Source: a virus
IMG/VR virus record: IMGVR_UViG_3300031951_000093
Span: 1 to 64,000 of that record
Direction: 5' to 3' (one strand)
DNA length: 64,000 nt
Shown here: positions 30,257-45,485 of the stretch, piece after piece
Position numbering within the stretch: the stretch's first letter is position 1
Layout of the letters: every line of letters starts with the position of its first letter
Made by a program: the position numbers and the translations under genes
Notes under the pieces: generated by a model
What the model saw: only the letters and a program-made list of their open reading frames with translations
What the model was told of the DNA's origin: nothing
Database searches by the model: none

Positions 30257-31818
30257 GATATGGGGGTTCCTTTCGTTGAGGTTTGATTTTGGACGGTTCG
30301 ATTCTTAATCGGTTGCGTGATACAATTGGCTTTGAATATGACAAAAGGCTGGGTTTTTTTGTTGTGTTTGAAGAAGGAGAGTATTTTGATACTAATCTTT
30401 CAATTGATCAAATGATGCAACTTAGCCAGGAAATCGCTGATCTAGCGCAAAAAGCAATGCAAGAGGAGGAAGGTAATGCCTGATTCAATCCTCAAACGAT
30501 TAGGAGGCATTTTCTCCGTGTGGGTTAATGCCGCAGGCACATTTACCGTGCAAGCCAAGCATTACGGTTATTCAACTGCGCTAGAATCCTTGACGGCAAC
30601 AGAATTGCGTCAACTCGGCGACGAATTGATCGCAATGGCAGATGCAATGGAACCGGAATCAGAACAGGAAGATATTGATCCATCCGAAGCAGAAATGCAC
30701 GATTGGAACAATCATCCTGCGCTCACCGCAGAGCAAAGAGGAGGCGTGAAATGAACATTGCGTTTTATGTTGCAATCGCTGTGGTATTGCTCCCTATGAT
30801 AGTGGTTGCGTTTGTTGCTGCTGTTTGTGGGGCGAAAGGTTTCAAATCATGAGCGAACAAATCAAGCCATTGTTTCACCTTGCAAAACACAAAGATGGCA
30901 ATCATCGCGGATCACTTAGGTTGAGATGGTTTATTAAATATGGCGACTCAATGACTGATTTTGGGTTTTCGACCAAATCAGAAGCGTTAGAATGGGTTCG
31001 TAGACATTGGCTGCTTAATGCTGTTGATTGGCAGAGTAAATATATATTTAGACTAAAAGGTGATACTAGGGATATTTCAATTGTCAGCAAGGATGGATAT
31101 TCGCTAAAAGCCTTTTCTTGTGTTTAATGTTTCAAATTGTTAAAACAGCTAGCCGTCTGATTGTGTTAGTCTTATCGTAAGGAAGTCCACCCAAAGACCA
31201 TGAATTTTCAACCTCCAGCGCTTAATCCGCGCCCAATCCATCCTTCCTCTAGGCCTCAACCAGTGAAGCCTAGGCCATTAGATCGCCCCAAAGCGCAAAT
31301 TGCCATGATCACAACAGAATATGCGCATCGGTTGCTTGCATTGTTTGCGCTATTGTTTGTCATCTCTTTGGGATCTTGCACCATTGCGCCTATTCTTGGG
31401 GCATTAGAAGGTGCTAGGATTCACGCTCCGGCTAAAACCGCGATGGTGGCGTGATGGACTTCATTCAGTGCGCGGAATTACTAGAGTCTGAGGGCTTTGG
31501 TAATGCAGCTAAGTTTTTGCGCAATTTCAACAGTGATTCAACTATGTACAATGACACAGATCTGATGAGTTTACTGACTGACCCTAACATCAGTCAAGGT
31601 GCAAAAATTGGCGTCTTGGCTGACATGGTTGTGCCGAATGAGCCAGAGCCAAATTTGAACAAAGGTTATTCTGAAGTGCAGAATAACTTGCAGGAAATTG
31701 CGATGGTGACGTGGATGGCCAAGCAGGCAGTAAGGAAAGAGATGATTGAGATTGCGACTAGTTTGCAAGATGTATCGGTAAACAGTGTAAAAATAGTTGA
31801 TAAGGAGGCTTGATTGTG

Positions 31819-32667
31819 ATGAAACTATTGCGCGGCGGGTCTTGGGACCCCTTTCCCGAGGACTGCCGCTCGGCTTCCCGCTTCCACGGCGCCCCCGACC
31901 TTGCCGACGACTTCGTCGGGTTCCGCGTGGTCTGCCTCCCGTCACCTTCACCTTCAATCTTTCAACAGATGATTAAACTATTGCGCGGCGGCTCTTGGGT
32001 TAACCATCCCCGGTTCTGCCGCTCGGCCTACCGCGGCAGGGACCACTCGGATTACCGCTACAATGGCTGCGGTTTCCGCGTCACTCAGCCACCAGGTGCA
32101 TCCTCGTTTGAAATTACAATGGTTCCCATTTTAGCAGGTGAATTCATGATGGGAACATCAAGCGACCTAAATGAATGGAGCGACGAAGAGCCACAACATT
32201 TGGTGAATATAAATAGCTTTTCAATAAGCCAAACGCCTATTACTCAGACGCAATGGCGGGCAGTGGCATCATTGCCAAAAGTTGAAATAAATCTAAAGCT
32301 AGATCCATCTTATTTCAAGGGTGATAATCTGCCTGTTGAGAGTGTAAACTGGTATGAAGCAATGGAGTTTTGTCGGAGGTTAAGCGCCGCAACGGGAGAA
32401 AAATATACACTACCAACAGAAGCGCAGTGGGAATACGCTTGCCGTGCTGGTACTACAACGCCATATAACATAGGGGACAAAATCACAAAAGAACAAGCGA
32501 ACTGTGGCAGCAGTAAAACCACACCAGTGCTCAAGTATCCTCCTAACACCTGGGGATTGCATGATATGCACGGCAATGTTTGGGAATGGTGCTTAGATGA
32601 TTGGCACCCTAATTATGAAGGCGCTCCAAATGATGGTAGTGCTTGGCTTGATGGAGATGCAAAATGA
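31819..32667 (+). CDS. FGE-sulfatase (CLec-fold) domain protein, permuted, with two DGR variable-region-like repeats
   Basis: PITQTQW, LPVESVNW, LPTEAQWEYACRAG and GLHDMHGNVWEWC; two LLRGGSW...CRSA.R...GFRV units at the N-terminus. Confidence 0.85.
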   Translation: MKLLRGGSWDPFPEDCRSASRFHGAPDLADDFVGFRVVCLPSPSPSIFQQMIKLLRGGSWVNHPRFCRSAYRGRDHSDYRYNGCGFRVTQPPGASSFEITMVPILAGEFMMGTSSDLNEWSDEEPQHLVNINSFSISQTPITQTQWRAVASLPKVEINLKLDPSYFKGDNLPVESVNWYEAMEFCRRLSAATGEKYTLPTEAQWEYACRAGTTTPYNIGDKITKEQANCGSSKTTPVLKYPPNTWGLHDMHGNVWEWCLDDWHPNYEGAPNDGSAWLDGDAK

Positions 32668-41367: not shown

Positions 41368-43398
41368 CGCCAAAAATCCCCGGCTGGGGCATTGCAAAGG
41401 CCATGATTATTGAGACACGTAAAGCGCCAGATGGACGCACGGAGGCTTGTATTTTGCCGCCAGAACATGAAGCACCTTTTTGGGTGGATTTGCAGCAGAT
41501 TGCGCAGTTTAGGGGGAGGTTCATATATGATGAGAAGGCATCTTTGGCTCAGGAGCCTGGCGACGATGATTCCAGCAAGGATTCAAATTAAGGATGGGGT
41601 TGTTCATAGAATGGATGAATTTATTTTATCGCTTGATATGCAGACGCCATGGGTTCGAGAAGTGTTTACTAAAGATCAGCTTGAATACTGCCGCATCACC
41701 AGAAAAGCCAGAGCAAAGAACAAGTCAATTCGCCCTAGGTTGATTGGAGGTTGATTATAGTGAGCCAAACAGGATGGAATCAACTTACTCAAGAGTGTCC
41801 AGAAATTTTGCAGCTAATGGCTGAACTTCCATTGCACATGAGACCTGGCATGATAAACGCTGTTTATGATGCAAAAAGAGGTGTCGAATTAAATGCGCTA
41901 TCTGATTGGCTTGTAAATTGGCTGTGTTTTTGCAATGCTCGCGACACAGAGTTATGCGCCAATGTTTACTCTCTTCTTGAGAAACTAGGAAAAGTATCTT
42001 CAACATGGCGCATTAAGAATTGATCATGGAAAATCTTTATGAAATGATTAAAGCCCTGGAGGCCAGGGTAGAAGAGCTGGAGTCTGCAAAAAGATTTGTA
42101 ACAACTGCTTCGAAGGATCCGCATCCTGGCGACAATGGCAATGCCCCCAATCGACTGGCTTTTATGAAGGATGAATTTCTTCCAGACCTTCCCAAGCCTT
42201 TTCCCGCCAATCTCAATGATCTCTACGACCCGACCTTCAGCGACGGATTGAGCCCGTCTGAGCACCTGGACCGCCTTTATGGCCACCGTGCGGCTCCACC
42301 GCACCCGGCAGAGGATCCAACCGACGACGAACTGTTGCGCGCCTATGACACCGCCAAGCGCAAGGACTACTACGAGGGCCTTCCCGGTGAAGGCTGGCAC
42401 TGGCGAGGCGAAAAGGAGGCAACTGTCTGCGGCCTTCGCGCGGTGATCGCCCGCTATGGCCGCCCTGCCCTTGAGCCCGTCACAAAAGGCAACAGACCAA
42501 TCTCAAAGATTAGTTCAATCTCAGAGATCAGGTCCTTCTATAACGAGGATGGCGAATGCTGGTGCTTTGAAAGGGCTGACGGGGAGTGGGATGTTCCAGC
42601 TTCCTGGCACTTACGCGTGCCATACCACGCTGATGAGTATTTTCTGCCGCATTATTATTTCCCGGTGCCAGGCAGCCATTCTCCTGACGCCACGAAAATG
42701 GCTGGGGAGGTGCAGCCATGAGCAACGCCACCAAACGCTGGCCCCTTGCCGACGCCGAGCACATCGCCGTCGGCAGCGAGCAACTGGGCGCCATTGCCGG
42801 CCCCGTGATGCAAGCGCCAATCCGTGAAGAGCTGAGGGCATTTGTCCACAGCCTGGAGCCATGGGCGACATGGTTAAAACCTGGCTCCTTGATTGAGGAT
42901 ATTGACCGCGATCTGGTCGATTTGATGATGGCCGCGTTGCAGCGGTTTGGCCGCCCCGCCTTCCATCCCATCCCGGTCTCCGAGCGGCTGCCGGGGCCTG
43001 ATGATTGCTGCCCCAACCCTCGCAATGGCCAAGGGCAATGGTGTTGGGGATGGGTGCAGCATGACCCGATCCTCTACGGCGGCCGTTGGCGAATGATGTG
43101 CCGCGAATGGCTCCTTGATGAGGCCCTGGCGTGGGCTCCATGGTGGGCGTTCCCTATACCAGGCAACCATTCTCCCGACGCCACGAAAATGGCTGGGGAA
43201 AACCACACACCACAAAGCTAGGAGGATCACATGACTGATTTTGAAGCGCAAGTGAAGGCCGCCGCCGAAAAGGCGGTGCTGCATTTCATCGAAAGCGGCG
43301 GATGGCTGCTGCCTAATTACCAAGGGCGGCTGAAGGTGCCCGAGGAGTGGATGGCCGAGTGTTGGAAGCTTGTGGACGCCGACAAAGTGCGCACCCAG

Positions 43399-43509
43399 AT
43401 AGCCCCGCTCGTAGAGCGCCTGAGCGCTGCGCATGGTGTCGCGGGCGGAGAGACGCAGCTTGCGGTTGGCCTCCTGCTGCAGGGTGCTGGTGGTGAACGG
43501 AGGCACCGG
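43399..43509 (-). pseudogene. topA: fragment of bacterial DNA topoisomerase I gene embedded antisense in a phage ORF
   Basis: Translates to [37 protein letters not shown], the conserved TopA segment before the catalytic Tyr; GC-rich; flanks unrelated. Confidence 0.85.
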
Positions 43510-45485
43510 GAAAGGCTTCGGGCGCTGGTGCGGGATCACATGGATTCCATAATGAAGGCCGGCCCCATGGCTAAACCGGAGGGCCAATCATGAGCCACCT
43601 TAAAATCCTCGCCGCAATCCTCTGCCCATGCGCCGCGATCCTTTGCCTATGGTGGTTAATCCACCGGCAGAATGGGGTGATCGAAAAACAAAAGGCTTCT
43701 ATTTCTGTGCTAGCTGAATTAATTAAAGATCATCGAAAAAAGCTGGCAGGTGCAGGCGTTTGCCGCTTTCATGCAATGCCGCAATGTGATGATTTGCTGC
43801 ATGGTAAATGCTGGCTCACGTGGCCAAACTGCAAGGGTTGGATATTTGACAGTCCAAGTGAATGCACCAATTGGAGTCACTGGCTGCCTTATTGGTTCAT
43901 TCCCCTGGTTACCGCGCCAACCGAGCCTCTCCGTCATGACAGCAAGCCCGCAAAGCCTTGGGAGGGCCAGCCATGACCACCTGCAACACCTGCAACAACA
44001 CCATCCCAGACCCCGCTGAGGAATGGCCCGACGGCAATGGCGGCACCATCTGCCAGGAGTGCTGGGAGACTGAGTCTTCCCGGATGTGGTGGGCGGCGGT
44101 GATCCCCCTCGATCAAGCGGATGCGCTGGGGGCGAGTGGAACGGCGGCGTGGGAGGGGCAACCATGCTCGCCCTAAGCGTCATGCCGTTGGGCTGATCGT
44201 TGCTCCTGCGGTCCGCCAGAGCCGCGCCCAATCTGGCATCATTCCATCACATCCACACCCCATGCCCACCCTCAGATTTGAAGGCTACAGCGACGACACG
44301 TTCGGTGAATACGCTCACACGAACAATGACTACGACAACTGCGCCAGTGGCGAGTCGATCGAGTTTCTTGTGGAAGATCCGTCAACAGGCTTTGCCTTAA
44401 TTGTGACTGGACAACATTGCCCTGGCAACTCTTTTGGCTGGTTGATTGGTGTTTCAAATGGAAATACAAAGTTGCCATTTCCGAGTTGGCCGATGAAATT
44501 TCAGCCACAAAAATTTCAGCCACAAGAAGAACCCTTCTTTGCTGATCCATGTTTAGTAATTGAAGCACCCGACGGCGTGCTTTTGCGCTGCCTGACCAGG
44601 GAAGTGGCAGCAATCCACCACCAATAGGAGGTAATTAAATGGCCGCCACCGATTTAATACGACTACAAGGCGCCAACGCGCGCGCGGCTGGTGTTGATTA
44701 TTTTTCAAATCCCTTCACGTCATTAGATCGGGTTCCGCCGCAACTGGGGAGGACATTGGCGATTGGGCCGCCAAAGTTAGGGCTTGGTGGGATGGGTGGG
44801 AAGTCGAAGACTTTTTAAGGCACGATTAATTAGCGGCTCGTCATGGCAAGCAATATGGTGTTTATTTGTGTCCACATTGTGATGGCACACATTTAACTAC
44901 CAAACTTGAAAATGCTGATTTATACGAGCCGTTACTTTATGTAACATCTTGAGCAGTGTTACGGATTGTTTCAACGCCAGCCATCAGCAGACTTGATGGC
45001 TGATAATTAGTTCACGGGGCAGAGATGCTCCACAATCTTGGCCCCCAATTCAATGAACTCCCCTCAATTAGTCTTTATTCACAACGGATACTGGTATTCA
45101 TACTACGAACCTAACGACATGAAAGAAGTTGTACTGTGGACAAGATATAAACTTAAGCCCGTTAGCGGCGAGAGCGTGCCGGTGAATGGTAGGCACAAAG
45201 CAATTGTCATTGATAGTAATATCTTAAGAATCATATCTGGCGGAGAATGGTACGGAGAATCAGTAATAAACTCTAATTTGAGTGATTTTAAGTTTGAATT
45301 TGATGATCAATACCATGATGACTTCAAGGCTGGCGCAACAAGAGGATTCACTGGCAAACGCGCATGTCATCGTGATTTTTATTATCGCCAGTGTGATGAC
45401 TGGAGATCTGGATATGATGAGGGCCGCAGAGCACGCCTAGCAGCGATTGAAAAGGCTAAGCTGCCCTTTTGATGATAAAATCTAA

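Follow-up and report, generated by a model that had tools for sequence, protein, structure and literature searches.

Tandem DGR-type variable regions in a circularly permuted lectin gene of a phage genome without reverse transcriptase

Known DGR targets and the architecture of the phage gene

It has been reported in surveys that the variable regions of DGR targets lie at the 3' end of their genes, since the cis elements must be intergenic (PMC8144416; PMC7517822), and a full 3' homing element together with an intergenic hairpin is thought to be required for DGR homing (PMC3240598; PMC8144416). TvpA (Treponema denticola variable protein 1, PDB 2Y3C) is a solved DGR target of the FGE-type C-type-lectin (CLec) kind, in which a single, C-terminal variable segment is followed by intergenic cis elements and the DGR resides in the same genome. 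In Bordetella phage BPP-1, with its Mtd protein, and in other phage DGR targets a C-type-lectin-fold region is varied at template adenines, and these phages encode their own reverse transcriptase (RT), Avd and template, the target being a tail-fibre receptor-binding protein (PMC3240598; PMC8144416). The trans variable proteins of cyanobacterial and Thiohalocapsa DGRs (PMC7517822; PMC10907252) are FGE-type CLec targets remote from the RT/template cassette; their diversification in trans was inferred from homology between variable region and template, and they reside in the same cellular genome as the DGR, with a 3'-terminal variable region that departs from the template at no non-adenine site. 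Trans targets have so far been reported within one genome only, as judged by such a perfect non-adenine match (PMC10907252; preprint bioRxiv 10.1101/2023.09.22.558884), and DGRs were described in an earlier survey as absent from Synechococcus and Prochlorococcus and rare in unicellular cyanobacteria. A full-text literature search for DGRs combined with circular permutation returned nothing relevant, and in the part of the journal literature that was covered, nothing was found on targets carried by a phage and diversified by the DGR of its host.

The DNA analyzed here, referred to as the window, is a stretch of 64,000 nucleotides (positions 1 to 64,000) of the IMG/VR record IMGVR_UViG_3300031951_000093. 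The whole record of 79,993 bp is rated 100% complete by CheckV and represents a tailed phage with terminase, portal and head proteins, a replication initiator, ribonucleotide reductase and thymidylate kinase. An open reading frame on the + strand, starting at 31810 or 31819 and ending at 32667, sits among small early-type ORFs adjoining the nucleotide-metabolism genes and outside the tail module. A strong Shine-Dalgarno sequence, read at 31802-31808 (+), precedes the ATG at 31819 by 10 nt, which argues that the first of the tandem units described below is translated. From this ATG the gene (31819-32667, +, stop codon included) encodes 282 aa, which Pfam and phmmer against the PDB identify as an FGE-type C-type lectin in permuted order.

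The body of the fold (residues 100-278; 32116-32652, +) is a member of the Pfam family FGE-sulfatase PF03781 (186 bits, 1e-54, cut-off 23.3 bits) and aligns to profile positions 4-209 of 255, which leaves the last fifth of the profile without a counterpart at the C-terminal end. Where the canonical FGE order places the body first and the closing segment RGGSW...GFR last, the window protein ends at the point where this segment ought to start: a C-terminal copy is absent and two in-frame copies (RGGSW...GFRV, residues 2-41 and 53-90) stand at the N-terminus. The PDB matches fall into two blocks each, residues 100-278 corresponding to PvdO 41-241 and residues 4-38 to PvdO 249-283, and residues 96-265 corresponding to TvpA 27-235 and residues 2-41 to TvpA 255-294. 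The gap at the C-end of the Pfam alignment and these split alignments bear out the circular permutation put forward in the original prediction. The catalytic FGE cysteine pair of the closing segment is lacking, each unit having a single Cys, in its CRSA motif; the window protein is a member of the non-enzymatic, lectin-type branch of the FGE fold, as is TvpA. It shares with TvpA both the fold and the location of the variable residues in the same RGGSW...GFR segment, but this segment is N-terminal, tandem and followed by coding linkers, in a genome that holds neither RT nor template.

Unit 1 (distal; 31819-31971, +) consists of a variable-region segment (31825-31929) followed by a 42-nt coding linker, and unit 2 (proximal; 31972-32115, +, the 153-nt repeat copy reaching to 32124) of a variable-region segment (31978-32082) followed by a linker into the lectin body. 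A repeat search paired 31817-31881 with 31970-32034 as tandem copies (period 153 nt), and in the unit alignment the scaffold bases are in common and the differences fall in variable codons. The GC content is 0.63-0.70 over 31800-32100, against about 0.42 in the surroundings, and adenines number 9 per 125 nt in unit 1 and 17 in unit 2. The original prediction of two tandem DGR-type variable regions with a near-identical scaffold, GC-rich and A-poor, thus agrees with what repeat search, alignment and composition revealed. At the end of unit 1, an IMH-like remnant of the host-type 3' homing element (31927-31940, +) reproduces exactly the opening 14 nt of the element common to host A-type templates and variable regions, the remainder being missing, and unit 2 retains at most a degenerate remnant. 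The units stand at the 5' end of the gene and are followed by coding linkers, in place of a 3'-terminal variable region with IMH and hairpin in the intergenic DNA behind it. When the window linkers were compared with the 3' flanks of host templates and variable regions as possible copies of the template 3' flank, in which case the arrays would be cDNA copies joined end to end, their scores stayed within the range of shuffled controls.

Throughout the complete genome of 79,993 bp, a profile search for RVT_1 returned no reverse transcriptase, and no Avd-type protein, template repeat or third copy of the unit, adenine-rich or otherwise, was found; the absence of RT and template repeat that had been noted from the window alone therefore extends to the whole genome. 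In contrast to BPP-1, this phage possesses no DGR machinery and carries the gene outside the tail module. The exact gene sequence is present on 5 contigs in public collections, and independent assemblies in JGI, ENA, Logan and NCBI show the permuted architecture as well, so many of them that misassembly is ruled out.

The fold was also modelled. In AlphaFold2 models of the whole chain (alignments of 28 and 103 rows) the body had a pLDDT of about 90 and both units stayed unplaced, with pLDDT below 50; Foldseek matched PvdO, FGE and TvpA at a probability of 1.00. A two-chain test in ESMFold2, pairing residues 96-282 with unit 2 (50-95), gave an ipSAE of 0.95 compared with 0.01 for the best of 3 controls, a mark reached by 58/80 solved complexes and by 2/110 mismatched pairs; the runs had at least 96% of contacts in common and a partner pLDDT of at least 88. 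Such a pass indicates pieces that are compatible with the canonical fold, which is less than binding inside the cell, and may reflect only their likeness, as two pieces of a solved fold. According to this model, the proximal unit would pack back onto the body and complete the fold. Modelling of the permuted fold, as called for by the original prediction, was therefore divided: unit 2 docks on the body in ESMFold2, but AlphaFold2 places neither unit in the whole chain.

The permuted protein is not isolated. At least 19 clusters in the protein database lack the C-terminal segment and carry 2-5 units at the N-terminus, and a further set of proteins combines N-terminal units with a complete domain; the latter may be intermediates toward the fully permuted form. 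Alignment places P0162-P0167, P0171, P0157 and P0158 in this second set, and the closing segment at the C-terminal end of the domain itself has degenerated in P0162-P0167 and P0171, where the CRSA cysteine is lost. Long proteins of tandem FGE domains occupied the top of an exhaustive protein search, and their domain junctions, as in multi-domain tandem FGE/CLec proteins generally (including the tandem CLec targets of PMC10907252), are collinear with residues 53-280. Tandem FGE/CLec proteins keep a complete last domain, whereas the phage family stops just before the closing segment and repeats only a 51-codon unit. The permutation likely arose from tandem FGE-domain proteins, the junction in question joining the end of domain n to the start of domain n+1.

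Three phage records are of particular use for comparison. L002 belongs to a sister phage with a terminase 99% identical and the same 2-unit gene; L003 (4 units) and L004 (3 units) come from higher-GC phages with the same truncated body behind the units. None of the three records contains an RT or a template, and a pattern scan of them yielded only their 2, 4 and 3 units. With near-identical records left out, L002 was the sole match to the exact linker pattern in viral contigs, metagenome contigs gave none, and a protein-guided metagenome scan returned relatives at no more than 56% identity. Among cultured phages in GenBank the permuted form occurs in none, Microcystis phages matching the lectin body only. 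The linker after unit 1 of L004 (L004:5961-6007) resembles the template-side rather than the variable-region-side 3' element (29 vs a shuffled maximum of 24), a possible sign that template or cDNA copies, and not target genes, gave rise to some of the units. Between L003 and L004 the lectin body is 98.3% identical and the flanking 3 kb on either side are just 78-81% identical; the lectin gene appears to move between phage backgrounds by recombination.

Relation of the units to host DGR templates

A GC-rich, host-like fragment inside a phage gene (window 43390-43520) is 87-91% identical to five genomes of the Cyanobium clade, and the host is therefore taken to be a freshwater picocyanobacterium of this clade. 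The Cyanobium genomes that match the fragment, which serves as a host marker, are the same ones that bear matches to the DGR scaffold.

The scaffold pattern of the units was found at more than 120 loci, mostly in genomes of Cyanobium, Synechococcus and Prochlorococcaceae. True templates, with 8-11 AAY codons, make up eighteen of the scaffold copies, and the template-type 3' element terminates all of these except three. RT was present in 5/5 template-bearing genomes searched, adjoining the template wherever coordinates were comparable, and with the RT profile an RT was detected in nearly all loci that bear a template. Several of the host contigs with a template are short pieces of MAGs (e.g. 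L202, 5.3 kb) that could be part of a mobile element. The DGR targets of Cyanobium are proteins of 950-1,280 aa in which NACHT, WD40 or HEAT regions precede a C-terminal variable lectin domain, and they resemble the putative antigen sensors of PMC10907252. Such host targets with NLR-like sensor architecture lie at L230:2207-6049, L127:3811-7641 (-), L196:233-3622 and L144:2970-6587.

As a control, host variable regions were compared with their own templates and showed 0-4 non-adenine mismatches in 17/19 pairs. Against its best template, unit 1 has changed at 19/25 adenine sites and at 9/83 non-adenine sites. No sampled template is free of non-adenine mismatches to the window, 9 of them falling in the variable region of unit 1 and 15 in that of unit 2, and a degenerate pattern for the predicted unit-1 template (up to 3 mismatches) found none in the 401 host-family genomes searched. 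The search for a template that the original prediction had proposed accordingly held in part: Cyanobium templates beside an RT were found, but none in the phage itself and none that matches the window units at all non-adenine sites. The two units belong to different template families, as had been suspected, and the prediction of an orphan target diversified in trans, or of variable regions captured from the host, draws support from the scaffold match, the adenine-site differences, the hypervariability of unit 1 and the two template families. Identity of the DNA scaffold shows that both units are DGR variable regions whose ancestry lies in the DGR systems of the freshwater Cyanobium/Synechococcus clade to which the host belongs. 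Unlike the trans targets of cyanobacterial and Thiohalocapsa DGRs, the window target lies on the genome of a non-integrating phage and has no exact template among those sampled.

Variable regions of ordinary layout on phages without RT come closer to a host template. C-terminal variable regions at L098:1050-1171 (-) and L100:976-1100 and in L084, L087, L102 and L110 match a template in a Cyanobium MAG (L202:4547) perfectly at every non-adenine site up to the homing element, and they also share the flank that follows the variable region in the L202 organism's own target. A perfect non-adenine match with the same 3' element, by which remote targets are judged, is thus found for these canonical regions with respect to L202 and not for the window's units. 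Complete or nearly complete phages without RT include G023 (66.9 kb, 100% complete), whose terminase is related to that of the window, and G024 (277 kb, 98% complete). RT was found in none of 26 further viral records bearing such units, and in 0/30 viral records with such units, eight of them at least 96% complete. Targets compatible with a host DGR thus occur commonly in these phages in the absence of an RT, with the permuted family as their most derived form.

Two further arrangements were observed in these viral contigs. The canonical phage FGE/lectin genes of L093 (7440-8486), L096, L098, L106, L107 and L109 have the variable region twice in tandem at their 3' end, with a spacing of about 124-130 nt; of the two copies in L093, only the downstream one, with a full homing element, is in frame, and the other is read out of frame as a linker. 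Duplication of units seems to recur in these phages. In L082 (348-887; a viral contig of 26.8 kb, 31% complete and without RT) a 179-aa protein consists of two tandem units with no lectin body, and its first unit is an unmutated, asparagine-rich copy that resembles a template repeat inside coding sequence.

Variation between close relatives and how it may have arisen

The comparison of L003 with L004 is the most informative, since both carry the same array on nearly the same body. Their first units are identical, and the distal units of both are identical and degenerate. L003 unit 3 and L004 unit 2 differ at 13 bases, namely at 13/26 template-adenine sites and 0/73 others (p=1.7e-9), and the proximal pair, L003 unit 4 and L004 unit 3, differs at 16 bases, 15/26 adenine sites and 1/73 others (p=5e-10), so that 28/29 differences in total fall at template-adenine positions. 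After the N-terminal arrays had formed, the units of these phages still gained changes confined to template-adenine positions.

Between the window and L002, the body is 93.9% identical, unit 2 82% and unit 1 75%. Unit 2 differs at 14-15/26 template-adenine sites and at 6-7/73 others, the latter being about the background rate. Unit 1 differs at 20/73 non-adenine sites, which points to replacement from another source and not to simple re-mutagenesis. At the protein level, 13 full-length proteins at least 89% identical to the window protein were compared. Among them, unit 1 varies at 17/25 positions and forms 5 haplotypes (variants include P0152, P0273 and P0274) with every scaffold residue fixed, and unit 2 varies at 1/25 positions and the body at 18/187. 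Rewriting of unit 1 after formation of the array is thereby seen, at the protein level, in the window's own population. Confinement of hypervariation between close relatives to template-adenine positions was found for L003/L004, for unit 2 of the window and L002, and for unit 1 in the population. One unit-1 allele is common to 8/13 relatives, on diverged backgrounds, and together with the static unit 2 this implies no more than episodic rewriting. Among the unit-1 alleles, fits to two different template families were obtained, and this favours an external source that depends on the strain: two families would be hard to reconcile with one phage-borne template and easy to obtain from different host strains.

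Our preferred explanation, held with moderate confidence, is that the units are orphan DGR targets which host DGRs rewrite in trans during infection. The units' lack of a full 3' homing element and of an intergenic hairpin counts against retrohoming in trans, as do the non-adenine mismatches of the window's units to every sampled template and the at best episodic rewriting.

Alternatively, the phage units could be patched by gene conversion, that is, by homologous recombination through the scaffold blocks with host DGR targets or with the lectin variable regions of other phages, the host DGR itself never acting on phage DNA. Adenine-only differences would be expected in this case as well, because host variable regions made from one template are identical at non-adenine sites; the 20/73 non-adenine differences in unit 1 between the window and L002 are as for wholesale replacement, the population is mosaic, with one unit-1 allele on two gene backgrounds, and the change in array length (4 vs 3 units) is a sign that recombination between units occurs. 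The flanking homology, however, amounts to only about 11-20 nt, and L003 unit 3 and L004 unit 2 do not differ over the 5' third of the variable stretch, so that a crossover would have had to occur within a block of 14 nt in the middle of the scaffold; partial conversion anchored at the 3' side is what retrohoming typically gives. Gene conversion is on balance unlikely.

It has also to be considered that the units are fossils, captured once from host DGR targets or templates, that rewriting has ended, and that the present differences are old alleles reshuffled by recombination between phages, with drift. The 9-15 non-adenine mismatches to any sampled template, the truncated homing elements, the static unit 2 and the identical, degenerate distal units of L003 and L004 would all fit such a history. 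Yet L003 and L004, with the same array and a body 98.3% identical, differ at 28 adenine sites and at 1 other; drift is not adenine-specific, and old alleles ought to differ at silent non-adenine sites too, which makes this account quite improbable.

It is decidedly improbable that the DGR at work belongs not to the host chromosome but to some other mobile element (prophage, satellite or co-infecting phage): some of the MAG contigs with template and RT are just 3-7 kb and possibly mis-binned, and the viral contig L082 bears a template-like unmutated unit, but templates with RT are also found on contigs of 79-272 kb and in the cultured Cyanobium isolates L127, L153, L164 and L157, and, as stated above, RT is absent from all 30 viral records with such units. 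An integrated prophage rewritten by the DGR of its resident host has no support, neither a tyrosine nor a serine recombinase being present in the complete genome of 79,993 bp.

A proposed course of events and its meaning

Under rewriting by host DGRs in trans, the gene product would be a soluble, variable binding protein whose FGE-type C-type-lectin fold is circularly permuted. The closing strand-loop-strand segment, with the ligand-contacting variable residues, would have been moved to the N-terminus and then tandemly duplicated, and one unit, the proximal one in the models, would pack onto the body and close the fold. During infection, mutagenized cDNA from the template of a host-encoded DGR would home into the phage-borne units, relying on the conserved scaffold and on the partial 3' homing element retained in the coding linkers, and the phage would thereby borrow the hypermutation engine of its host. 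Of the two cassettes in the window, unit 1 would be the one that varies at present, and unit 2 would be older and for the most part fixed. An intracellular role of the protein in the conflict between phage and host is only a plausible guess, made because the gene lies in the early nucleotide-metabolism block rather than the tail module and because the host targets, with their NACHT, WD40 and HEAT regions, are sensor-like.

The permuted family breaks two rules, namely that the variable region lies at the 3' end of the gene and that a trans target lies within the DGR's own genome. Phage genomes without any DGR component carry an adenine-specific footprint relative to host-type templates. It is conceivable, if rather doubtful, that non-integrating phages of freshwater picocyanobacteria use the chromosomal DGR of the host, whose normal targets are NACHT/WD40-type sensor proteins, as a mutator for their own genes, through N-terminal cassette arrays with the 3' signals in coding linkers, in which cassettes are rewritten or swapped into a single binding slot, the product being perhaps a hypervariable decoy or binder. 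The permuted lectin would in that event be a natural binding scaffold with exchangeable loop cassettes, and as such of interest for protein engineering. Should the DNA of infecting phages indeed be rewritten by host DGRs, targeted hypermutation would be a resource that is shared, or fought over, by virus and cell.
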